A stretch of DNA of 24,000 bases from Clostridia bacterium (GCA_017459565.1 JAFUCP010000084.1:19716-43715); one strand, 5' to 3'; positions 1,461-16,319 are shown, numbered from the stretch's first letter. The notes: a model not told the origin generated them from the letters alone. Made by a program: numbers and translations.

Positions 1461-3221
1461 TTAGAACAGGCCGCTGACCTTGCCGGTCTCGGTGTCCACA
1501 TCCACGCGGCGATAGGCCGGGTCGGACGCGGTGCCGGGCATCATGGAGATGGTGCCGGCCATCGGGCAAAGGAACTTCGCTCCGCCGTACTCCAGGATGT
1601 CGCGGATGGGCAGCCGCCAGCCCTTCGGCACGCCCTTGAGAGCCGGGTCGTGGGACAGGGACAGATGGGTCTTGACCATCATGGTGCAGTAATCCGCGTA
1701 CTTGGGATCGCTCTCAAAGCGCTTGGCCTTCTCGATGGCCAGAGGCGCCCAGTCGACGCCGTCCGCGCCGTAGACTTCCTTGGCAATGCGCTCCACGCGC
1801 TCGCGCAGGGGCATCTCCAGGTCGTACAGGAACTTGATCTCGGGCTTCTGCTCGCAGGCTTCGACGACCACCTGGGCCAGCTCCTTCGCGCCTTCGCCGC
1901 CATAGCGCCAGTGGTTGGACTGGGCGCAGCGCACGCCGCGCTCGGCGCACAGGCGCTTGATCAGGTTGATCTCGTTATCGGTATCGGTATAGAACTGGTT
2001 GATGCAGACCACGGGCACAATGCCGGACTTGAGGACGGTGTTCACGTGATGGAACAGGTTCTCGCAGCCCTTTTCCACCAGCTCCAGGTTCTCCTCGGTG
2101 TATTCCACGGGCAGCGGACGGCCGGGAGAAACCTTGGGCCCGCCGCCGTGCATCTTGAGGGCGCGGACGGTGGCCACGATGACGGAGACATTCGGGGTCA
2201 GCCCGGACAGGCGGGTCTTGACGTTCCAGAACTTTTCAAAGCCGATATCCGCGGCGAAGCCGGACTCCGTCACATGATAGTCGAACAGCTTCAGAGCCAG
2301 GCGGTCCGCGATGACGGAGCTTTGGCCGATGGCGATGTTGGCGAAGGGGCCGGCGTGAATCAGCACGGGCTGATGTTCCACGGTGTAGCACATGGTGGGA
2401 TTGATGGTGTTGCGCATCCAGGCGGTCATGGCGCCGGCAACCTCCAGATCCTCGCAGGTCACGGGTTCGCCGCTGCGGCTGTAGGCCACGACGATCTTGC
2501 CGATGCGCTCACGCAGGTCCTTGAGGTCCTTGGCGACGGCCAGAATGGCCATCAGCTCAGAACCGACGGCGATGCCGAACTTGCTCTCCATCAGATATCC
2601 GTCCTTGTTGCCGCCGACGCCGATGATGATGTTGCGCAGGCCCTGGGCGCAGAAGTCCAGCACCCAGCCCATTTCGACGCGCTTGGGATCGATATCCAGG
2701 CGACGGCCCATGTTGTGCTTGGCCATCTCTTCATCGGTATAGTTGCGCTCATGCTGCATACGGGCGTTCAGCGCCACCATGGCCAGGTTGTGGGCGTTCA
2801 TGATGTCGTTGATATCGCCGGTCAGGCCCAGGGAGAACTCCGTCATGGGCATCAGCAGGGCGTTGCCACCGCCGGCAGCAGTGCCCTTGACGTTCATGGT
2901 GGGGCCGCCGGAGGGCTGGCGCAGCGCGCCGCCGACGTTCTTGCCGATCTTTGCCAGGCCCTCGATCAGACCCAGAGAAACGGTGGACTTGCCCTCGCCC
3001 AAGGGAGTGGGAGTGATAGCGGTAACTTCGATGAACTTGCCGTCGGGCTTGTCCTTCAGACGATTCATGATCTTGATAAAGTCAAGCTTCGGGGTCTTGC
3101 CGTAGGGAATGATTTCATCGGGCAGCAGGCCCAGCTTCTCCCGGAAGAATTCCACGGGGGGCAGCGTTTTTTCCGCTTCTTCCGCGATTTGCCAGTCTTT
3201 GTAGATCGTAGGATCAAGCAT
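1461..3221 (-). CDS. fhs: Formate--tetrahydrofolate ligase
   Basis: 586 aa with the hallmark [11 protein letters not shown] nucleotide-binding motif and full-length FTHFS-like sequence. SD is ttgaaggaggaacccccaaATG. Confidence 0.95.
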
Positions 3222-3512: not shown

Positions 3513-4466
3513 ATGCTGCAATACAAGTCACTTAAGGGCACGCTGGAAAGGCTCATCGTATCCGACGCGCAGGTGGACGACCAGATCGAACAGCTGCTTC
3601 AACAGCACGCGCGCGTCATCCCCGTGACGGACCGCGAAAGCCGCCTGGACGACGAGCTTCTGCTGGACTACGCGGGCTTCTGCGACGGCGAACCGTTCGA
3701 GGGCGGCACGGCGCAGGACCAGACGCTCCTGCTGGGCAGCGGCACGTTCATTCCCGGCTTTGAGGAACAGCTTGTGGGCAAAAGAGCGGGCGACGAGGTC
3801 GACGTGCGCGTCACCTTCCCCAGCCCCTACCACGCCCCGGCGCTGGCGGGCAGGGAGGCCGTGTTCCACTGCCACGTCAAGGAAATCCGCCTGCGGCAGC
3901 GCTATGCCCCGGACGACGCGTTTGCCCGCGAGGTGGGTGGCTTCGACAGCTTCGCGGCCATGCGCGAAGCCATGCGCCAGGGCTTGCAGGCCTATGCGGA
4001 CCGGCAGGCGGACGAGGAATTGAAGCTGCGCTTGTTGGACGCGCTGACGGAAAACTACGCCTGCGACATCACCGACGCACAGCTTGAGAGCGCCATAGAG
4101 GCGCAGATGCAGTCCCTCACGGCACAGCTTTCCCGCCAGGGATTGACGCTGGACGCCTACTGTCAATTCACTGGCAAGACAAAGGCGCAGCTTCGCCGGG
4201 ACTGCGAGCCCGACGCCAGGAAGGCCGTCATCCGCCAGAGCGCGCTGGCGGAGATCGCCCGGCAGGAGGGGCTGGAAGCCGACGAAGAATCCGTCGCCGA
4301 GGCCATCCGACAGCTTTGCCGGGACAACCACATGACCCTCGAGCAGCTGACGCCCCTGCTGGACGAAAGCGCCCAGCGCGCCATCGTGCAAAACGTCATC
4401 ACGCAGAAGGCGCTGGACTGTCTGCGGGACAACGCCGTCGTCGAGACCGTCCAGCGCCACGCATAG
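3513..4466 (+). CDS. Trigger-factor paralog lacking the ribosome-binding N-domain (FKBP-type PPIase domain + TF C-terminal chaperone domain)
   Basis: 317 aa. DELLLDYAGFCDGEPFEGGTAQDQTLLLGSGTFIPGFEEQLVGKRAGDEVDVRVTFP matches the trigger-factor PPIase core (..IDF.G..DG..F.GG....L.LG.G.FIPGFE..L.G). It is followed by a long helical TF C-domain-like region. By eye the protein aligns with E. coli TF only from about residue 115. The upstream 290 bp is AT-rich promoter DNA and leaves no room for an N-domain. Confidence 0.8.
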   Translation: MLQYKSLKGTLERLIVSDAQVDDQIEQLLQQHARVIPVTDRESRLDDELLLDYAGFCDGEPFEGGTAQDQTLLLGSGTFIPGFEEQLVGKRAGDEVDVRVTFPSPYHAPALAGREAVFHCHVKEIRLRQRYAPDDAFAREVGGFDSFAAMREAMRQGLQAYADRQADEELKLRLLDALTENYACDITDAQLESAIEAQMQSLTAQLSRQGLTLDAYCQFTGKTKAQLRRDCEPDARKAVIRQSALAEIARQEGLEADEESVAEAIRQLCRDNHMTLEQLTPLLDESAQRAIVQNVITQKALDCLRDNAVVETVQRHA

Positions 4467-6542: not shown

Positions 6543-8672
6543 TTACATCAGCGGATCAAGGCCCAGCACCGGATGGCCCTTTTCGGTCAGCCAGTTGAGC
6601 AGCTCCTCGGGGTCGGTGGTGACGGTTTCATCCGCGATCATATCCGCGAAGTTCTCGATGCCGTACAGCTCCTGAGCGGTCTTGTTCAGGCGCTCGGCCA
6701 CATCGTCCTTGAGTTCCTTGGGCATCCAGACGATGCGCTCCGTGCCGCCCTCGGCGGAGGCGAACTTCTTGGAGGCGATGAAATGGCGGCCATGGCCCAT
6801 GAAGCCCGGGGTCTGCACTCCGCCGCCGGTCATGGAGGCCAGCTCGCCGAAGGTCATGCCCGTGGGCGTCATGCCGCTGTATTCGCGGTTGCAGATGATC
6901 ACGCCGTTGGACAGGGGCTCGATGCCGCAAATGCACTCAAAGCAGCCGCAGGAGGTCATGGGGTCCTCCATGATGGAGTACAGCGTGACGTTTTCCACCG
7001 CGCCGTGGGTCGCCTGGGTGACGGCCTCGTTTACGGTGTCATAGCGACCCGTGCGCTCGTCGGTGCAGCCCACCTTGGCAATGGGCTGGCTGGGGCCGGT
7101 GGGGTTAAGCTGGTAGGTCGCCTTGGCGTCCAGCCAGGACACCGCGCCGCACAGGCCCAGGCGCTCCGGCGTGACCACGCAGCAGTGGGCGGGCGCGAAG
7201 CTCTGACACAGCGTGCAGGTGAAGAAGGTGTCCACGCTCTCGTCGGTCATGCTGGCCAGGCGATCGTCCCGGGCGCTGTAGGTGGGCATGGCCACCTCGT
7301 CCAGCACCTGCTTCGCCTTGGCGGGATCGGTCACCAGGCGCACCTGGCACTTGTCCACCACGGCGTCGAACTCGTTCATGATCATGTTATACAGTACTTC
7401 GCCGAAGTGGTTCAGCCGCAGGCCCTTTTCATAGGCTTCATTGGATATGCGGATGCGGAACTGGTTGCGCTGGCCGGTGTGCATCACGCCCTCCATATAG
7501 TTGAACCAGGCGTGGATCTTGCGTTCGATGACGGATTCGAAGTCTGCCTGCATCTTCGCGCCGGCCACTTCGACACAGGTCGCCAGTGGGAATTCGATTT
7601 CGCCGCAGTCGATATCCGGCCCGTCGATGACGATTTTGTGGTCCTCCACGGCATCGGCATCCACCATCTTCACGATCTCGCAGGTCACATTCTTGCCGCT
7701 GTAGAATTCCACCTTCATGTCCTTCTTGCGGATGATTTCGCCCTCAAAGGCGGAGGCGAAGGCCACGGGAATGGGCAGCTCGGTGACCTTGATCTTGATG
7801 TTGCGCATTTCCAGAGAGTGCTTGACGGTCTCGGCGTGGTCCAGCACGGCCTCCAGGGCGCCGGGCACCTGCAAATCGCCGATATCCTGGTCCACGATCA
7901 CCGGGAAGCCCAGCGCGATCGCGCCGGCTCCGGCGGAGACAACCACCTCGTTCAGCGCGCCGAAGGTGTTCACAAAGGCGGGCACGCGCTCCTTGGTGTA
8001 ACTCAGCAGCGCGCCCAAATCGCCGGGCTGCACGCCGCCGAAGATCAGCGCCGCGCGGATGGCGACGGTGACCACATGGATGACGGCGGTTACATCGTGG
8101 CCCAGGGGCACCACGCGGAATTCCAGGCCCAGCTTCACGCCGCCCTCGGCGCACTGTTCAATGACATCGCCCACCAGGAAGGTCAGGATGCCCTTGGACT
8201 GGTAATCCTTGACCACCTTCACCACGTCCGCCGCGTCGCCGGCCTTGCCCAGCACCACGGCCACGCCGGGAATATCCCCTGTTACCAGCGGAACGCCCAG
8301 GGAGCGGATGATGGGATCGGGCACGAAGCCAATGCCGGAATCCTCGGCATAGGGATCGCTGCCCTCGACATACTTGAGGCCTTCGATGATCTCCGCGCCC
8401 ACGGCCGTGGCCAGGCCCGCGTTCAGCGCGTCGCCCAGCTCCGGCTTATTGGAAATCAGGCTCTTCAGCACACCGACGCAGGCGGGCAAATCCGCCAGCC
8501 TGGCCACCTTGACGCCCGTAGCCGCATAAATGGTCGGAAAAAAATAGGCGGTATCCGGGAAGGCAATCTTCTGATCCGGGCCATATTTTTCAATGGCGGC
8601 GTTGACCGCGCCTTCGGTCAGACCGGCGACGGCGTTGGAGCCGGCAAAGATAAGATCCGTCAATGCGCTCAT
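6543..8672 (-). CDS. acsB: Acetyl-CoA synthase (A-cluster subunit of CODH/ACS)
   Basis: 709 aa. It carries the A-cluster ligand motifs FFTCTLCQSFAPAHCCVVTPERLGLCGA and SCGCFECICGIEP (Cys-Gly-Cys) and is collinear with AcsB along its full length. SD is gaacggaggatttatcATG. Confidence 0.95.
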   Translation of the reverse strand: MSALTDLIFAGSNAVAGLTEGAVNAAIEKYGPDQKIAFPDTAYFFPTIYAATGVKVARLADLPACVGVLKSLISNKPELGDALNAGLATAVGAEIIEGLKYVEGSDPYAEDSGIGFVPDPIIRSLGVPLVTGDIPGVAVVLGKAGDAADVVKVVKDYQSKGILTFLVGDVIEQCAEGGVKLGLEFRVVPLGHDVTAVIHVVTVAIRAALIFGGVQPGDLGALLSYTKERVPAFVNTFGALNEVVVSAGAGAIALGFPVIVDQDIGDLQVPGALEAVLDHAETVKHSLEMRNIKIKVTELPIPVAFASAFEGEIIRKKDMKVEFYSGKNVTCEIVKMVDADAVEDHKIVIDGPDIDCGEIEFPLATCVEVAGAKMQADFESVIERKIHAWFNYMEGVMHTGQRNQFRIRISNEAYEKGLRLNHFGEVLYNMIMNEFDAVVDKCQVRLVTDPAKAKQVLDEVAMPTYSARDDRLASMTDESVDTFFTCTLCQSFAPAHCCVVTPERLGLCGAVSWLDAKATYQLNPTGPSQPIAKVGCTDERTGRYDTVNEAVTQATHGAVENVTLYSIMEDPMTSCGCFECICGIEPLSNGVIICNREYSGMTPTGMTFGELASMTGGGVQTPGFMGHGRHFIASKKFASAEGGTERIVWMPKELKDDVAERLNKTAQELYGIENFADMIADETVTTDPEELLNWLTEKGHPVLGLDPLM

Positions 8673-8724
8673 GATAAATCCTCCGTTCTCTTTCTATCCC
8701 CCCGCGGGGGTTCTTTTTGCTAAT

Positions 8725-8753
8725 ATTATAAACCCTGTCGCGCCGGAAATCAA
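8725..8753 (-). promoter_or_regulatory. Internal sigma-A promoter for acsB (TTGATT-17-TATAAT)
   Basis: Minus-strand reading: TTGATT (8753-8748), spacer tccggcgcgacagggtt, then TATAAT (8730-8725). The predicted 5' UTR contains a perfect 12-nt palindrome, CCCCCGCGGGGG, at 8699-8710. Confidence 0.55.
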
Positions 8754-8786: not shown

Positions 8787-8828
8787 CCAACAAAAGCAGA
8801 GGCCCCGCCGAAACGCTCGGGCGGGGCC
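8787..8828 (-). terminator. Rho-independent terminator or attenuator after acsE
   Basis: 9-bp GC stem GGCCCCGCC/GGCGGGGCC (8801-8809 / 8820-8828), followed on the minus strand by UCUGCUUUUGUUGG. It begins 19 nt after the acsE stop. Confidence 0.5.
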
Positions 8829-8846
8829 CCTGCCGTTGGGCAGCGC

Positions 8847-12049: not shown

Positions 12050-12069
12050 GGAGGCGCTTGTGCGCCTCC
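12050..12069 (-). other. Perfect 8-bp hairpin (GGAGGCGC-ttgt-GCGCCTCC) in the cooC-acsD spacer
   Basis: Read directly from the sequence. It touches the cooC stop codon and has no U-tail. Confidence 0.4.
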
Positions 12070-12842
12070 TAAAGTTTAAGGTCCTCCATGATTGATTTCA
12101 GCGCGGCCTTCACCGGGGCGTCATCTGGTACCTTGGCGCTGGGCTTGCCTTCGCAGTCGTACTCATAGACGGTATCGTCCTGCGGCAGCACGCCCGCCAG
12201 CTCCAGTCCGTGCTTTTCAATCTCTTCCTTAACCCCGTCGTTCAGGCTGCCGCCCGGCGCGCGGTTAACGATCAGCTTCATGGTGCCGGGCTTCAGCTCC
12301 AGCGCGTTCACCATTTCGGCGATGCGCGCAGCGGCCTGGATGCCCCGGCGGGAGCAGTCGCTGATGAGCAGGAGCGTATCCACATGCGGCAGCGTGCCGC
12401 GGGCGATATGCTCCATGCCGGCCTCATTGTCGATCACCATATACCCATATCGGCCGTAATACTTGTCGATCTGCGTCTTGAGGACGCCGTTGACATAGCA
12501 ATAGCAGCCCTTGCCCTCCGTACGGCCCATCACCAGCATGTCGAAATCGTCCTCTTCGATCAGCGCGGTGTTGAACTTGTACTCGGCATACTCCTGCTTG
12601 GTCATGCCGGCGGGGATGGGGCTGACAGGCATAAGCTCCGCATGGGCCATTTCCTCGCGGATGGAGCCCAGCGTGGTCTCCACCTCGACGCCCAGCACCT
12701 CGTTCAGGTTGGAGTTGGCGTCCGCGTCCACCACCAGCAGAGGGCCCTTGCCCTTTTGGGTCAGATATTCGATGATCAAGCCGCAGGTGGTCGTCTTTCC
12801 GACGTCGCCCTTGCCGGCCACAGCGATGACATGTGTTGACAT
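12069..12842 (-). CDS. cooC: CooC/AcsF-type nickel-insertion ATPase for CODH/ACS
   Basis: 257 aa. It has a deviant Walker A (AVAGKGDVGKTTTCG) and the metal-bridging C-x-C motif (GKGCYCYVNG). SD is cgaggaaaacaATG. Confidence 0.9.
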   Translation of the reverse strand: MSTHVIAVAGKGDVGKTTTCGLIIEYLTQKGKGPLLVVDADANSNLNEVLGVEVETTLGSIREEMAHAELMPVSPIPAGMTKQEYAEYKFNTALIEEDDFDMLVMGRTEGKGCYCYVNGVLKTQIDKYYGRYGYMVIDNEAGMEHIARGTLPHVDTLLLISDCSRRGIQAAARIAEMVNALELKPGTMKLIVNRAPGGSLNDGVKEEIEKHGLELAGVLPQDDTVYEYDCEGKPSAKVPDDAPVKAALKSIMEDLKL

Positions 12843-12865: not shown

Positions 12866-13795
12866 TCAGATCAAATCGACGATGCCGGATTCCTTCACCA
12901 GGCGGGTCACATCCTCATACTTGTTGAGGGCGTAGAGGTGAATGCCGTCGATGCCGCAGACCCTGTATTCGTCGATCAGACGGATGGTGTATTCCATGCC
13001 CGCCTCCTTGAAGGCAGCCTTCTTCGCGGCGATGGATTCCTCGCTCTCGTTGGGCGCGAAGGGATTCGGGAAGATCCAATTTTTGGAGATGATCTCAGCC
13101 AGCTCCCTGGGCATGACGCAGCCGTTGCGGCTGAGCGCCATGTTGATGGTGGCGGCGGCGTCCAGCACAGGCATGATGCCCACGTCCACGGGCATCCAGA
13201 TGCCGGCGGCGCGGATGGCGTCCATCCACCAGCGGAACTGGTCCATGTCCCAGCACAGCTGGGTCATGATATAATTGGCGCCCTCGTCCTGCTTCTGCTT
13301 GAGGAAGGAGATGTCCGCTTCGATGCTGCGGCAGGAGATGTGGCCCTCGGGAGAGCCGGCCACCGCGATGGTGAACTTATCGCCAAACTCCTTGCGGGTG
13401 AACTTCACCAGCTCCGTGGCATAGTGCAGATCTCCGCCCGTGCCGGTCCAGCCGAAGGGGATATCGCCGCGCAGGGCCAGCATGTGGTCGATGCCATGGT
13501 CCAGGTAGTTTTGAAGCTGCTGACGGATGCCTTCCCTGTTGTTGGCCACACAGGTAAAGTGCGTCACGGGGATGCACTTGCCGTCCTTTTTTATTTTGTC
13601 AAGAACCTCCAGGTTTTTGCCCACATTGGTGCCGCCCGCGCCGTAGGTGCAGGAAATGTAGTCGGGCTTCAGTTCATACAGATGGTCCAGCACGCCGCCG
13701 TCCCCGCACAGCTTTTCCATGCCGACATCGGTTTTGGGCGGAAATACCTCGAAGGAAAAGCCCATGCGCTGTTTGAGGATGTCCGTTACATTCAT
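12866..13795 (-). CDS. metF: Methylenetetrahydrofolate reductase
   Basis: Track ORF trimmed to the ATG at 13795 (SD tgggaggacgattaaacATG); 309 aa. MTHFR motifs present: FSFEVFPPKTD, CTYGAGG, ALRGD, TQLCWD. Confidence 0.9.
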   Translation of the reverse strand: MNVTDILKQRMGFSFEVFPPKTDVGMEKLCGDGGVLDHLYELKPDYISCTYGAGGTNVGKNLEVLDKIKKDGKCIPVTHFTCVANNREGIRQQLQNYLDHGIDHMLALRGDIPFGWTGTGGDLHYATELVKFTRKEFGDKFTIAVAGSPEGHISCRSIEADISFLKQKQDEGANYIMTQLCWDMDQFRWWMDAIRAAGIWMPVDVGIMPVLDAAATINMALSRNGCVMPRELAEIISKNWIFPNPFAPNESEESIAAKKAAFKEAGMEYTIRLIDEYRVCGIDGIHLYALNKYEDVTRLVKESGIVDLI

Positions 13796-13874
13796 GTTTA
13801 ATCGTCCTCCCAAGCCAAATTGTTACATTTCAGTGTCGCGCGTCATATAAAAAACCACGCAATTACACAACTAT

Positions 13875-13903
13875 ATAATACCACAAACCCGTTGATTAGG
13901 CAA
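13875..13903 (-). promoter_or_regulatory. Candidate promoter for metF-cooC-acsDCE (TTGCCT-17-TATTAT with TGn)
   Basis: Minus-strand reading: TTGCCT (13903-13898), spacer aatcaacgggtttgtgg, then TATTAT (13880-13875). It lies in an AT-rich island. Confidence 0.45.
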
Positions 13904-13952: not shown

Positions 13953-13976
13953 GATAAAAAGGATTCTCATATCCTC
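13953..13976 (-). terminator. Weak terminator-like stem (AGGAU-augaga-AUCCU + UUUUUAU) overlapping the stop of the 75-aa ORF
   Basis: The stem is only 5-6 bp, but a clear U-run follows on the minus strand. Confidence 0.3.
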
Positions 13977-14194
13977 GTGAAGAGAAACCTCTGTCTGAGG
14001 CCGCTCAGGCTGACAAACACGGTGAGGTTATCCGAATCCTTCTGTTCCACGGTCAGCTCGTCCGGCATTTCACCGAGAAGGCCTTTGACATAGCCCACCG
14101 GGTCGTCGGTCTCGATCTCATCGAAAAAAACATCCCGCATTTGATTGCCGGAGCAGCTGTTCTGTATCTCACGCACCACTTCGTATTCCGCCAT
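13967..14194 (-). CDS. Small acidic hypothetical protein (75 aa)
   Basis: Track ORF 13967..14299 trimmed to the ATG at 14194, which is preceded by AAGGAGGG. Sequence MAEYEVVREIQNSCSGNQMRDVFFDEIETDDPVGYVK..., with 15 D/E versus 7 K/R. I recognise no family. Confidence 0.55.
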   Translation of the reverse strand: MAEYEVVREIQNSCSGNQMRDVFFDEIETDDPVGYVKGLLGEMPDELTVEQKDSDNLTVFVSLSGLRQRFLFTRI

Positions 14195-14250
14195 AACACC
14201 CTCCTTGCGCATATAAAGAAGGCTGTCTGAAGGCTCTACGCCGATTTCGG

Positions 14251-14286
14251 AAAAATCTGCGGGTCCGGCGTCCCTGCCGCCCCCGC
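14251..14286 (-). terminator. Intrinsic terminator/attenuator between cooT and the 75-aa ORF
   Basis: The minus-strand RNA GCGGGGGCGGCAGGGACGCCGGACCCGC forms 9 bp of GC pairs with a 3-nt bulge, followed by AGAUUUUU. Confidence 0.5.
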
Positions 14287-14332
14287 GTTCCATCCTCAAC
14301 GGTACAGCATTGCTTCAGACAGCTCCCTCGGT

Positions 14333-14533
14333 TCAGGCCAGCGCCGCCCTGGGGCGCACCACCACCGTGCCGCCGGTCAGATCGGCCAGCGCGATTTCGC
14401 CCTCAATGACCTCTTCCCGGCCCATGATATCGGTCAACGTGATCACGCCGTCCTTCGTCTGGATGAGCATGACGTTTTTCAGCACTTCGTTTTCAGGCTT
14501 TTTTTCAATTTTGTACACCGTTGAAAGGCACAT
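14333..14533 (-). CDS. cooT: CooT-family nickel-binding chaperone
   Basis: Track ORF trimmed to the ATG at 14533 (SD gagaggagatatagacagATG); 66 aa. MCLSTVYKIEKKPENEVLKNVMLIQTKDGVITLTDIMGREEVIEGEIALADL... has the N-terminal Met-Cys2 and the size and beta-rich pattern of CooT (PF10133 type). Confidence 0.8.
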   Translation of the reverse strand: MCLSTVYKIEKKPENEVLKNVMLIQTKDGVITLTDIMGREEVIEGEIALADLTGGTVVVRPRAALA

Positions 14534-14537
14534 CTGT

Positions 14538-15032
14538 CTATATCTCCTCTCTGGCAATGTCCAATGCCCGCAGCACCGTGGACAGGCGCATGTTTCCCTT
14601 TTCAAAATCTGACACCGCCTGCAGCACCTGCTCAGAGGCGATGACATCCCCCACGTCCCTGAGCCTTCCCGCCAGCTGCGCCAGCTCGTTGGCGTGGGCA
14701 GCGTTGTGGTTGACCATGTACTGCATCAGCGCTATGATCTCGGTCCGCGGGTCCACGCCACAGCCATCGCAGTCGGAGTTACAGTGCGCCGCACCCGGGC
14801 AGCCCTGGGGATGCTCATGGGGATGGGCATGGGTGTGTTCATGGGCGTGGGCATGGGTCGTGCCGTCGGCATGGGTATGCTCATGGCTGTGGACATGGGT
14901 ATGCTCGTGTTCGTGTCCTTCGCCGCTTTCCCGGGCGGGCTCACCGGTATGCGGATGGTTTTCGCCGTGGGCATGGTGGTCGTGGGCGATCCCATGCTCG
15001 TGCATATATTCATGGCTGTGTTCGTGATCCAT
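14538..15032 (-). CDS. Extremely His-rich / Cys4 metal-binding protein with a helical C-terminal domain (putative Ni/Co storage or chaperone)
   Basis: ATG at 15032 (SD gaaaggatgtttgaagATG); 164 aa. I count 28 His in the first 83 residues (MDHEHSHEYMHEHGIAHDHHAHGENHPH...GHEHEHTHVHSHEHTHADGTTHAHAHEHTHAHPHEH). Next comes C78-x5-C84-x3-C88-x2-C91, then about 70 aa of helical sequence with HNAAHANELAQLA. Its stop lies 4 nt before the cooT ATG. Confidence 0.8.
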   Translation of the reverse strand: MDHEHSHEYMHEHGIAHDHHAHGENHPHTGEPARESGEGHEHEHTHVHSHEHTHADGTTHAHAHEHTHAHPHEHPQGCPGAAHCNSDCDGCGVDPRTEIIALMQYMVNHNAAHANELAQLAGRLRDVGDVIASEQVLQAVSDFEKGNMRLSTVLRALDIAREEI

Positions 15033-15075
15033 CTTCAAACATCCTTTCAAAACGATTCTGCTTCGTCCCCATCAG

Positions 15076-15104
15076 ATTATACAACAGTCCGCCGGGTTTG
15101 TCAA
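15076..15104 (-). promoter_or_regulatory. Exact-consensus sigma-A promoter (TTGACA-17-TATAAT) for the His-rich protein/cooT operon
   Basis: Minus-strand reading: TTGACA (15104-15099), spacer aacccggcggactgttg, then TATAAT (15081-15076). The spacer holds a G/C tract flanked by ACAA/TTGT arms (15081-15101), a weak candidate operator. Confidence 0.6.
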
Positions 15105-15234
15105 AATCTTCGACTTGGGCGGTCCATTCCCAAATTCCCGGCGGGACCGCGGTTCCGGGCAAATCACCCATCCCCTGCCCGGGGTTTCCAATCAAAAATT
15201 CCATCATTCTTTACCTGGCGGGCGGAATGAAGGA

Positions 15235-15263
15235 TTGCATTTCGCGGCGACATGGGATAGAAT
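15235..15263 (+). promoter_or_regulatory. Promoter for the CsoR/InrS-like regulator (TTGCAT-17-TAGAAT)
   Basis: TTGCAT at 15235-15240, a 17-nt spacer, and TAGAAT at 15258-15263, about 20 nt upstream of the ATG. SD is GAGGTGA. Confidence 0.5.
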
Positions 15264-15283
15264 TCAAGTGAGGTGAGCCTTTG

Positions 15284-15646
15284 ATGAACCGAGACGATCA
15301 CAGCCACGCCCATCCCGAGGGAATGGATCACGAATACATGCACGCCCACGGCATCCCCCACAGCCACGAACACGGGCATACCCACACCCACGAGCATACC
15401 CGGGCCGTGCTGAACCGGCTGTCCAGGGCCATCGGGCACCTGCAATCCGTGCGCACCATGGTGGAGGAGGGGCGCGACTGCTCCGAGGTGCTGGTGCAGA
15501 TTGCCGCCGTGCGCTCCGCCATCGACAATACCGGCAAGCTGATATTGCAGGATCATTTGAAGCACTGCATTGTGGACGCCGCCCACGAGGGCGACCAGAA
15601 GGCCATCGACGATCTGTGCGAGGCCATCGACAAGTACATGAAATGA
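15284..15646 (+). CDS. CsoR/RcnR (DUF156) family metal-sensing repressor with a His-rich N-terminal extension (InrS-like)
   Basis: ATG at 15284; 120 aa. The core LNRLSRAIGHLQSVRTMVEEGRDCSEVLVQIAAVRSAIDNTGKLILQDHLKHC gives the C66 / H91-x3-C95 ligand pattern. The first 38 residues contain 13 His. Confidence 0.85.
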   Translation: MNRDDHSHAHPEGMDHEYMHAHGIPHSHEHGHTHTHEHTRAVLNRLSRAIGHLQSVRTMVEEGRDCSEVLVQIAAVRSAIDNTGKLILQDHLKHCIVDAAHEGDQKAIDDLCEAIDKYMK

Positions 15647-15686: not shown

Positions 15687-16319
15687 CTATACGATCCTGC
15701 GGATATGCTCGTGGCTTTCGCCGGTGATCCAGTCCACGTCGTCGGTCAGCCAGTCCATGATCTCCAGCTGCCGCGTCTCCCAGGCGATGGTGTCCTGCTT
15801 TTCCTGCTCCGTCATCTCCCGGTCGAAGGCCTTCACCTTTTCGCAGTAGCCGAAGATGTATCCCGCGCCGTACCAGATGGTGAAATTGCTGTCCGGGCCC
15901 TCTGAGACGGCGTCACCCCGGGCGGCGATCAGCCCGTCGTGGCGGCGCTTGTATTCCTCCGCGCAGCCGGGTTTGAGCTTCGTGACGAACACGCGATGCC
16001 GGATCAGGGATTTGTCCGCACGCACGATGCCGATATCGTGGTACATCAGCCGCATACTGCCCGTAGGGCAGAGCAGCTCCGCGCTGCCGTCGATCACGCG
16101 CTCCAGCAACTCGCGCAATTCAGGGGCCGCGTCCAGATCCGTGTCCCTGGCATATTCCCCGTATCCGCAGAGTATGTCCGATACGCTCCAGACGGAGAAG
16201 TTTCCCACGCCGAGACGCTCCGCCTCCTCCAGAATCCTCGGCGCAAGCTCTGAAATCCCTTGCAGCACCGCCTCGCGCCTGTCAGGGTTTATCTTCATCA
16301 AAAAGGTCTTGCGTTCCAT
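15687..16319 (-). CDS. Tandem L-rhamnose-mutarotase-like (RhaM/DUF718-type alpha+beta barrel) protein
   Basis: 210 aa built from two repeats. Each opens like RhaM (RKTFLMKINPDRREAV... and HRVFVTKLKPGCAEEYKRRHD...NFTIWY), compared with E. coli RhaM [21 protein letters not shown]...NYAIY recalled from memory. Confidence 0.5.
   Translation of the reverse strand: MERKTFLMKINPDRREAVLQGISELAPRILEEAERLGVGNFSVWSVSDILCGYGEYARDTDLDAAPELRELLERVIDGSAELLCPTGSMRLMYHDIGIVRADKSLIRHRVFVTKLKPGCAEEYKRRHDGLIAARGDAVSEGPDSNFTIWYGAGYIFGYCEKVKAFDREMTEQEKQDTIAWETRQLEIMDWLTDDVDWITGESHEHIRRIV

Follow-up and report, generated by a model that had tools for sequence, protein, structure and literature searches.

This report concerns a gene cassette in a 24,000-nucleotide (nt) stretch of DNA from a Clostridia bacterium (GCA_017459565.1 JAFUCP010000084.1:19716-43715); the whole stretch is called the window. 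The cassette contains the gene for REG, a regulator of the CsoR/RcnR family, and, on the opposite strand, genes for a His-rich protein of Pfam family DUF8180, for the small protein CooT and for p75, an acidic orphan protein (Table 1). REG is divergent from a consensus promoter that drives DUF8180, CooT and, by read-through, p75. In about half of the species, metF-cooC-acsDCE(B) follow directly downstream of the module. An initial annotation had read the segment 13967-15646 as a nickel-sensing, storage and delivery cassette attached to the head of the acetyl-CoA synthase (ACS) operon. When each item was checked against the sequence, the features proved to be real genes at the positions given. 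The observation is almost entirely correct; its interpretation is partly supported and is corrected and extended here.

Relatives of DUF8180 are found in 477 species of the genome collection, and the best 80 loci, from 80 species genomes, were analyzed. Related stretches from species genomes are labelled L001 upward. Because the same cassette recurs across dozens of species-level genomes, the arrangement is far from chance.

Table 1. Positions of the cassette and of associated features, counted from the first nucleotide of the window.
Feature	Position	Strand	Basis or remark
REG, InrS-like CsoR/RcnR-family regulator, 120 aa	15284-15646	+	Pfam PF02583
REG-DUF8180 divergent intergenic gap, 251 bp	15033-15283		
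Candidate operator 1, C/G-tract inverted repeat AACCCCGGGCAGGGGATGG (- strand reading)	15168-15186		Motif search and comparison
TTGACA-17-TATAAT sigma-70 promoter of the DUF8180-CooT unit	15104..15076	-	12/12 match
His-rich/Cys4 CooJ-like protein, 164 aa, Pfam DUF8180 (PF26551)	14538-15032	-	
CooT, 66 aa, Met-Cys2	14333-14533	-	PF10133
Terminator-like GC-rich hairpin and U5 run	14249-14286	-	RNA fold
p75, 75-aa acidic orphan protein	13967-14194	-	Pfam/NCBIfam: no family
acs-gene promoter, extended -10 type, TTGCCT-17-TG-TATTAT	13903..13875	-	Promoter scan
metF	12866-13813	-	Pfam
CooC/AcsF-type P-loop ATPase with C113-x-C115 (CYC)	12069-12842	-	Pfam CbiA/AAA_31
Terminator-like hairpin 3' of acsE	8789-8830	-	
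acsB internal promoter TTGATT-17-TATAAT	8753..8725	-	10/12 match
Candidate operator 2, AACCCCCGCGGGGGGATAG	8694-8712		Between acsB -10 box and ribosome-binding site
acsB	6543-8672	-	Pfam

Pfam matches confirm that metF, a cooC-like gene, acsD, acsC, acsE and acsB lie downstream of the cassette and are co-directional with it. Past acsB, the order is DUF3786, a LysR regulator, the formyltetrahydrofolate synthetase (FTHFS) gene at 1461-3221, and fchA. No gene for carbon monoxide dehydrogenase (CODH; cooS/acsA, Prismane) was found in the window, nor in the related loci checked. AcsB retains its N-terminal CODH-docking domain although no CODH gene was found in the window.

Conservation of the Cassette

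CooT directly follows DUF8180 in 80/80 loci, and a divergent REG is present in 54/80. Genomic context was informative in 75 of the 80 loci, and metF/cooC/acsDCE lie downstream in 40 of them. REG is present in 39 of the 40 acs-linked loci, the single exception ending at a contig edge, and in 13 of the 35 other loci. The distribution of p75 is sharper: 40/40 acs-linked loci vs 2/35 others. Specifically the acs-linked form has the cassette in full, sensor and p75 included. Thus, the claimed position at the head of an acs operon holds for 40/75 species but is not ACS-specific, as about 35/75 loci lie beside no recognizable nickel enzyme, among unrelated housekeeping genes such as those for a small multidrug export protein (Sm_multidrug_ex), ThiT, HIT and energy-coupling factor (ECF) S-components. 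Since the DUF8180-CooT association is obligate across loci, housekeeping neighborhoods included, the two form a self-contained pair.

The pieces are reshuffled in distant acs operons, which were recovered via AcsB. DUF8180-like, cooT and cooC genes are tightly packed in L106 and L107; p75 alone stands at the head in L097 and L112; and no cassette is found in L121 and L148. In some species, the operon stops at acsE and acsB is solitary elsewhere (L091, L098, L105). A separate observation is that acsC and acsE are fused in L085 (11056-13335) and L088 (9982-12276), encoding a protein of about 760 aa with FeS, CdhD and Pterin_bind domains.

REG, a Probable Nickel-Sensing Repressor

Both profile searches proposed in the initial annotation, with PF02583 (CsoR) and PF10133 (CooT), gave matches well above cut-off. 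REG matches PF02583 over residues 40-117, the three-helix protomer domain, with an E-value of 2e-27 and 95.8 bits (cut-off 22.8), which upholds the CsoR/RcnR fold; C66, H91 and C95 are present. The His-rich N-terminal extension occupies residues 1-39, of which the first 38 include, as first counted, 13 His. The extension carries 8-31 His in all 55 REG homologs.

In a comparison with the PDB, the closest solved relative of REG is InrS (5FMN), with an E-value of 1.1e-26 and 48% identity over 90 columns, whereas Cu(I)-CsoR structures match only at E 1e-13 or worse. InrS residues H21/C53/H78/C82 align with H34/C66/H91/C95 of REG, i.e., the W-X-Y-Z fingerprint H-C-H-C is present. This fingerprint has been assigned to Ni/Co sensors in a network of the CsoR family (PMC8643695). 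H34, H36, D65, C66, H91 and C95 are invariant in 55/55 REG homologs, and the candidate metal ligands are H34 (or H36), C66, H91 and C95. The 'A' position before the first Cys is the invariant Asp (D65) in REG, Pro in InrS and Tyr in Geobacillus CsoR; the second-shell Tyr of Cu(I)-CsoR is therefore absent from the REG family. The second-best PDB match is 6AHX, for which a literature search returned unrelated chemistry papers only, and the best NCBIfam match, RicR, is below threshold. No copper genes (copA, copZ or others) were found in any neighborhood examined. The InrS-like reading is thus supported by the best solved match and by aligned ligands that do not vary among the homologs, and we consider REG to be probably a repressor that senses nickel; its specificity for nickel and its response to metal are predicted properties.

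In one lineage with the full cassette, a LarA-like gene (Lar_N + LarA_C, a nickel-pincer-dependent racemase family) adjoins the regulator (L085:5928-6815, L086:5925-7196, L087:6094-6840), a second link to a nickel enzyme.

The DUF8180 Protein and CooT

Counting confirms that the 164-residue protein has 28 His in its first 83 residues and a Cys4 motif, arranged C78-x5-C84-x3-C88-x2-C91. Local Pfam and NCBIfam scans returned no family, the PF26551 model being absent from the local Pfam copy; a precomputed database match to PF26551/DUF8180 exists for the exact window protein and for all 120 homologs listed. No paper mentioning DUF8180 was found in the literature. In an alignment of 20 homologs, the His-rich N-terminus varies in length, the four Cys are invariant, and a C-terminal domain of about 70 residues is conserved, with Y105, M106, H109, N110, H113, E116, D142 and E144 invariant. 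The AlphaFold2 (AF2) model has a predicted disordered N-terminus (predicted local distance difference test score, pLDDT, <50) and a two-helix hairpin, residues 95-162, formed by helices 95-126 and 130-162 (pLDDT 84-98). Helix 1 presents a ladder, Y105-x3-H109-x3-H113-x2-E116. A Foldseek search of the model against the PDB gave generic hairpins only (E >0.8).

The databases name this protein 'cobalt transporter'. The name is unsupported, since the protein has no transmembrane segment (maximum 19-residue Kyte-Doolittle mean, KD19, 0.35), and no transporter family matches it.

A profile of the Cys4 loop plus hairpin retrieves 578 representative clusters, many of them without the Cys4 loop. The hairpin is also found fused to CobW/COG0523 GTPase, ABC ATPase, ZnuA, CobU, S-adenosylmethionine (SAM)-methyltransferase and Nitro_FeMo-Co domains (P0300, P0326, P0284, P0297, P0337, P0305/P0373/P0304, P0243). 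Several of the partners are truncated and may be artefacts of assembly or gene calling; the CobW-His-rich-Cys-hairpin fusion looks genuine. These features suggest a domain for metal handling in general and temper any claim of nickel specificity.

CooT of the window begins 4 nt past the DUF8180 stop codon, with Met-Cys-Leu, and matches PF10133 with an E-value of 7.5e-17 and 61.8 bits (cut-off 27), covering 59 of 60 profile positions, in agreement with the first identification. The Met-Cys-Leu N-terminus is found in 80/80 loci, so that Cys2 is kept throughout. CooT binds nickel via Cys2 (PMC6006190). A phmmer comparison of the window CooT with the solved CooT sequences found no similarity.

A Probable Remote Relationship to CooJ

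CooJ is hard to detect by sequence. Its helical domain carries the nickel site, H(W/F)xxHxxxH, and is accompanied by a His-rich region that is disordered; the latter is N-terminal in the CooJ proteins of Clostridium pasteurianum BC1 and Shewanella fodinae (bioRxiv 10.64898/2026.03.10.710785). Clade E CODH operons linked to one-carbon genes contain CooT and candidate CooJ genes (PMC13056359). The initial annotation regarded the His-rich/Cys4 protein as a non-homologous substitute for CooJ. We think this is probably wrong, for the following reasons.

The Rhodospirillum rubrum CooJ sequence was taken from a contig located via CooT. In a profile-sequence alignment with hhalign, the DUF8180 hairpin is colinear with CooJ residues 16-71 over 54-56 columns, at 27-28% identity (P 0.002-0.004, probability 8-14%). 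The aligned DUF8180/CooJ pairs include Y105/H18, M106/F19, H109/H22, H113/H26 and E116/E29. That is, H22, H26 and E29 of CooJ fall on invariant residues of DUF8180. Only 1 of 400 composition-preserving shuffles reached the real score of 19.5 (mean 9.7, standard deviation 2.1). At the first motif position, the wider DUF8180 family has Y 97 times, F 7 times and H once, and one member has H-L-x2-H-x3-H. A PDB profile search with the DUF8180 alignment retrieved designed repeat proteins only and no CooJ.

Other traits of CooJ are present as well. The flexible His-rich region with a few Cys corresponds to residues 1-83 and the four Cys that follow; the helical hairpin is present in the AF2 model, computed as a monomer; and the gene lies beside cooT in all loci, followed by cooC in L106 and L107. 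Thus, DUF8180 probably works like CooJ and is probably its remote homolog. The strict CooJ motif is absent, Y-M replacing H-W/F, and CooJ membership of DUF8180 is therefore unproven.

A His-Rich Motif Shared by REG and DUF8180

The motif HxYMHxHGIxH is found in 47/55 REG tails and 29/81 DUF8180 N-termini, and 24 loci, the window among them, have it in both proteins. The window pair is MDHEYMHAHGIPH in REG residues 14-26 and MDHEHSHEYMHEHGIAH in DUF8180 residues 1-17. In the DNA, the sharing produces a perfect 12-nt inverted repeat, ATGGATCACGAA, at 15021-15032 and 15323-15334. A second motif, HTHADGTTH, is confined to DUF8180 (44/81). The shared motif could reflect module exchange between divergent neighbors, or selection for matched metal capture.

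p75 and the CooT-p75 Spacer

The initial description of p75 as acidic is correct, with 15 D/E vs 7 K/R. Neither Pfam nor NCBIfam has a match. The 369 homologs, nearly all of 74-77 aa, carry no annotation. The AF2 model (pLDDT 91) predicts a beta-beta-alpha-beta-beta-beta fold with no significant fold neighbor in the PDB, and no conserved metal-ligand pattern is seen beyond one Cys.

In the window, the CooT-p75 spacer is 138 nt. In it, AGAUUUUUCC comes after a hairpin at 14259-14286, and an outer stem of 11 bp (14313-14323 with 14222-14232) encloses the hairpin and the U5 run. The spacer folds better than shuffles (z -2.98). The intrinsic terminator proposed at this site has the expected GC hairpin and U5 run, but a consensus scan does not call it and it is not conserved. 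In nine related species, p75 lies 2-20 nt after CooT; it follows that the terminator is not conserved there and that p75 belongs to the same transcription unit.

The Divergent Promoter and Candidate Operator 1

The gap between REG and DUF8180 has the length first reported, and its promoter is an exact consensus sequence, the sole perfect match in 2.1 kb; shuffles yield 1.2 weaker sites. A promoter matching at 11-12 of 12 positions precedes DUF8180 in nearly all 80 species, including 23 of 26 loci without REG. The initial annotation argued that so strong a promoter likely needs repression. The strength is real, but because REG-less loci keep the promoter, the need for repression does not follow.

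The candidate operator 1, an inverted repeat of C/G tracts that is typically ggaaaCCCGGGGAGGGGGatg or atCCCCCGGGAGGGGatgg, precedes the -35 hexamer. The repeat is found in 34/55 REG loci vs 3/26 REG-less loci (Fisher p 2.8e-5). In the window, about 64 bp separate it from the -35 hexamer; in other species it abuts the -35 box or stands 25-40 nt upstream. The bare pattern is common in this GC-rich DNA, and the evidence for an operator is therefore positional and comparative. Flanked motifs number 109 in 2.2 Mb, about 1 per 20 kb, and 16 are found in the REG-DUF8180 spacers, which total about 14 kb.

The long leaders of L036 and L065 were considered as possible riboswitches. This was rejected, as Rfam is empty at both gathering and permissive thresholds and the element is a palindrome that recurs elsewhere. 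The palindromic element, CGGCAAGAGCTG...CAGCCGCAGACGATTT, is found at L036:9800-9990, L065:9870-9940, L026:10456-10467 and L055:1193-1204, that is, in the DUF8180 leader in two species, in the DUF8180-cooT gap in a third, and elsewhere in the fourth. The L036 copy carries a long inserted hairpin. With no Rfam family, the element looks like a small mobile or repeated palindrome.

Transcription Units of the acs Genes and Candidate Operator 2

The extended -10 promoter between p75 and metF is conserved in L005-L019, and the acs genes therefore have their own start. For this reason, a scheme in which the acs operon is merely read through from the strong DUF8180 promoter was rejected. The hairpin after acsE, GGGGCCCCGCC...GGCGGGGCC followed by CUGCUUUUGUU, is terminator-like and divides the acs genes, which form two or more transcription units; acsB is served by a promoter of its own.

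A second candidate operator, on the acsB promoter, was missed by the initial annotation. One of five pattern hits in the window, it has the sequence aaCCCCCGCGGGGGGATAg and lies in the acsE-acsB spacer, where the order is hairpin, promoter, operator 2 and ribosome-binding site. L080 (CCCCGTTGGGGGGATA) repeats the layout, as do L091 and L092 (ATCCCCCTTCTGGGGGAT), the nearest AcsB relatives from metagenomes, and L005 has a weaker variant, CCCCATATGGGAGATA, at the same position. In L098, L099 and L105, where acsB is solitary amid unrelated genes, ATCCCCC-N3-4-GGGGGATGG is found upstream of its promoter. The acsB site of L105 has exactly the sequence of the DUF8180 site in L025, and the flanks ggaaa...GGGGAT are common to sites at both promoter classes. 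The strict motif is found in 5 of 44 distinct acsB upstream types, vs 1.5% of background 200-nt windows. This comparison suggests, with moderate but not decisive support, that the regulon includes acsB in some lineages, the window organism among them.

A Proposed Mechanism and Its Alternatives

On balance, we favor the view that the cassette is a conserved nickel-homeostasis and maturation module of the Oscillospirales, a reading that we hold to be likely without being secure. The proposed course of events is as follows. Metal-free REG, as a tetramer, would bind the C/G-tract repeats at 15168-15186 and 8694-8712. Binding of Ni(II) at H34/C66/H91/C95, possibly after first being caught by the His-rich tail, would lower the affinity for DNA and free both promoters. 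The CooJ-like protein would then be made in quantity and would buffer nickel on its His-rich region and on an H-x3-H-x2-E site at the predicted dimer interface, while CooT would take nickel via Cys2. The CooJ-like/CooT pair would supply the CooC/AcsF-type ATPase, the presumed recipient, which would load the A-cluster of ACS; the same ATPase would also load CODH encoded elsewhere in the genome. The net effect would be that a nickel enzyme subunit and its nickel supply chain are co-expressed solely when nickel is available. The arrangement of sites suggests that nickel supply gates acetyl-CoA synthase.

A stronger proposal is that the InrS-like sensor directly gates both acsB and the nickel supply chain, making cytosolic nickel the switch of the last Wood-Ljungdahl step, with the REG tail sampling or exchanging metal with the buffer so that the set-point of the sensor is matched to saturation of the buffer. 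Since the REG tail and the CooJ-like buffer share HxYMHxHGIxH, the sensor would sample, or exchange metal with, the pool under its control. We regard this proposal as tentative and rather doubtful.

Several observations weigh against the maturation-module reading. The known InrS and RcnR sensors activate efflux when nickel is in excess, but CooJ and CooT are important when it is scarce; the regulatory logic proposed above is therefore tentative. There are also the roughly 35 of 75 loci near no recognizable nickel enzyme and the 26 of 80 loci that lack REG yet retain the consensus promoter. On the DNA side, about 100 bp separate operator 1 of the window from each of the predicted transcription starts, an uncommon spacing for steric repression; the bare C4-N-G4 pattern is not rare, with 5 hits in the window vs 3.7 expected; and just 5/44 acsB upstream types carry the motif. 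On the protein side, DUF8180 departs from the strict H(W/F)xxHxxxH motif of CooJ, the hhalign probability for the pair is just 8-14%, and the wider DUF8180 family, often without the Cys4 and with fusions to CobW, ZnuA, CobU, ABC ATPase and methyltransferase domains, suggests a broader role in metal handling. The x-C-H-C core of REG is also Cu(I)-binding, and InrS binds Cu, Zn and Co in vitro (PMC4235346).

The excess-type sensor and the housekeeping neighborhoods would be accommodated if the cassette were a general Ni (or Ni/Co) buffering and detoxification unit, like Helicobacter Hpn, in which a His-rich sink is derepressed at excess and adjacency to acs is opportunistic, with no delivery to ACS. 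InrS/RcnR-type sensors classically answer to excess, the consensus promoter implies very high expression, the acs genes possess their own promoter, and about 35/75 loci stand among unrelated genes. We nevertheless consider this explanation unlikely, because REG tracks the acs genes (39/40 vs 13/35 loci), the DUF8180-like, cooT and cooC genes abut in L106 and L107, the same type of operator is found at acsB promoters, and the CooT and CooJ proteins studied so far act in maturation. It is also conceivable that nickel is not the signal at all. REG would then sense another effector, for example Cu(I), Co(II), Zn(II) or a thiol-reactive species, and DUF8180 would be a generic binder of that metal. 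The C-H-C core is common to Cu(I)-CsoR, RicR is the best (sub-threshold) NCBIfam match, fusions of the DUF8180 domain with ZnuA, CobW/COG0523 and CobU exist, the database label refers to cobalt transport, and AcsC and AcsD, which are corrinoid (cobalt) proteins, are encoded nearby. InrS, however, is by far the closest solved relative (E 1e-26 vs 1e-13 for Cu-CsoR), the W-position His is invariant, the Tyr at the 'A' position of Cu-CsoR is replaced by Asp, and the obligate partner CooT is of a nickel-binding family; further, the neighborhoods examined are free of copA, copZ and other copper genes, and the DUF8180 protein has no membrane segment. A non-nickel signal is thus quite improbable.

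A final alternative concerns the DNA sites, which might be incidental GC-rich hairpins, with the chaperone operon constitutive and REG controlling only itself or a gene elsewhere. The promoter is equally strong without REG, the operator of the window stands well away from the core promoter, such patterns are frequent in this GC-rich DNA, and the strict pattern is scored in just 34/55 REG loci. Against these points stand the association of the motif with REG (p 2.8e-5), the enrichment in the spacers (16 hits in about 14 kb vs about 1 per 20 kb overall), the shared ggaaa...GGGGAT flanks and the identical sequences across two promoter classes; we judge constitutive expression very improbable. The maturation-module reading is the one carried forward below.

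The InrS-like sensor, the CooJ-like protein and CooT are each of a known kind, and their combination is new to the literature found: a search returned no paper on a nickel-type sensor of the CsoR family that is linked to chaperone genes, and apparently to acsB as well, where a Wood-Ljungdahl operon begins. If the maturation-module reading is correct, REG would link a nickel sensor of the CsoR family to nickel chaperones and a nickel enzyme gene, in place of efflux, for the first time. CooJ/CooT maturation, so far a matter of CODH operons in a small number of model bacteria, would reach the ACS operons and stand-alone modules of abundant gut and rumen Oscillospirales, and the acetogenic capacity of gut communities could hinge on nickel at the transcriptional level. 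DUF8180, with about 2,300 database matches, 477 species genomes and a misleading 'cobalt transporter' label, would receive its first functional assignment, and the 75-aa orphan family a role. Nickel supply is a recurring obstacle for heterologous production of CODH/ACS, and a compact sensor-plus-chaperone cassette with a candidate operator and a consensus promoter is potentially useful there.

Other Features of the Window and Related Loci

Within the Wood-Ljungdahl cluster, a gene on the opposite strand (3513-4466, +) encodes a 317-aa trigger-factor-like protein with FKBP_C and Trigger_C domains and without the ribosome-binding N-domain; the LysR regulator is on one side and FTHFS on the other. 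A 320-aa open reading frame overlapping it on the - strand has no family match. Convergent with the REG gene is a gene (15687-16319, -) for a protein of 210 aa whose C-terminal domain is rhamnose-mutarotase-like (PF05336, E 5.6e-11), kept at the same position in the closest relatives, L001-L007 and L019. Rfam at gathering thresholds has no match in the window, despite the FTHFS gene. In related loci, Rfam identifies an FTHFS RNA motif (L045:2852-2963), a cobalamin riboswitch (L028:5229-5410) and a tandem glycine riboswitch (L021:3595-3753).

Comparison with Known Systems

CooT of R. rubrum (5N76) and of Carboxydothermus hydrogenoformans resembles the present CooT in length (about 63-66 aa), Pfam match and an invariant Met-Cys2 N-terminus. 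Apart from the absence of phmmer similarity, the difference is one of company: here, CooT is always paired with DUF8180, often in genomes or loci without a CODH gene nearby.

R. rubrum CooJ and the variants with an N-terminal His-rich region (C. pasteurianum BC1, S. fodinae) are, like DUF8180, small soluble proteins with a flexible, Cys-containing His-rich region. Both have a two-helix hairpin, which is expected to dimerize in DUF8180, with a His ladder of i, i+4 spacing plus Glu in helix 1. In both cases cooT is adjacent and, in some species, cooC as well. In contrast to CooJ, DUF8180 has the invariant Tyr-Met in place of the first His and W/F of the motif, and an additional Cys4 loop that separates the His-rich region from the hairpin; the sequence similarity of the two is marginal, as the hhalign P-values indicate. 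The gene order also differs, being J-like then T here and C-T-J in CooJ operons, and the DUF8180 module is joined to ACS genes or stands alone, whereas CooJ is joined to cooS.

Among the regulatory systems, E. coli RcnR-rcnA shares the layout of a divergent sensor and target with sites within the common spacer, but the ligand set of RcnR is not that of REG. Helicobacter pylori NikR with Hpn and urease offers a functional parallel, in that the proposed circuit would likewise give nickel-dependent expression of a His-rich store and a nickel enzyme. NikR, however, belongs to another regulator family, and the targets here would be the CooJ-like protein, CooT and acsB.

The nearest counterpart of REG is InrS of Synechocystis PCC 6803, a protein of the same fold family with the H-C-H-C ligand set and a His-rich N-terminal extension. 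InrS combines its His-rich tail with a CsoR-type inverted-repeat site (PMC3320959), and a C/G-tract inverted repeat of this type is the likely operator in both systems, as a candidate in the case of REG. In both, too, an operator is found at a promoter internal to an operon, that of nrsD for InrS and, in the case of candidate operator 2, that of acsB here. The hosts differ, a cyanobacterium vs Clostridia. The REG tail is longer, with 8-31 His, and carries the HxYMHxHGIxH motif in common with a protein that REG is proposed to regulate. Finally, the target of InrS is the efflux gene nrsD, whereas the likely targets of REG are nickel chaperone and buffer genes and acsB.

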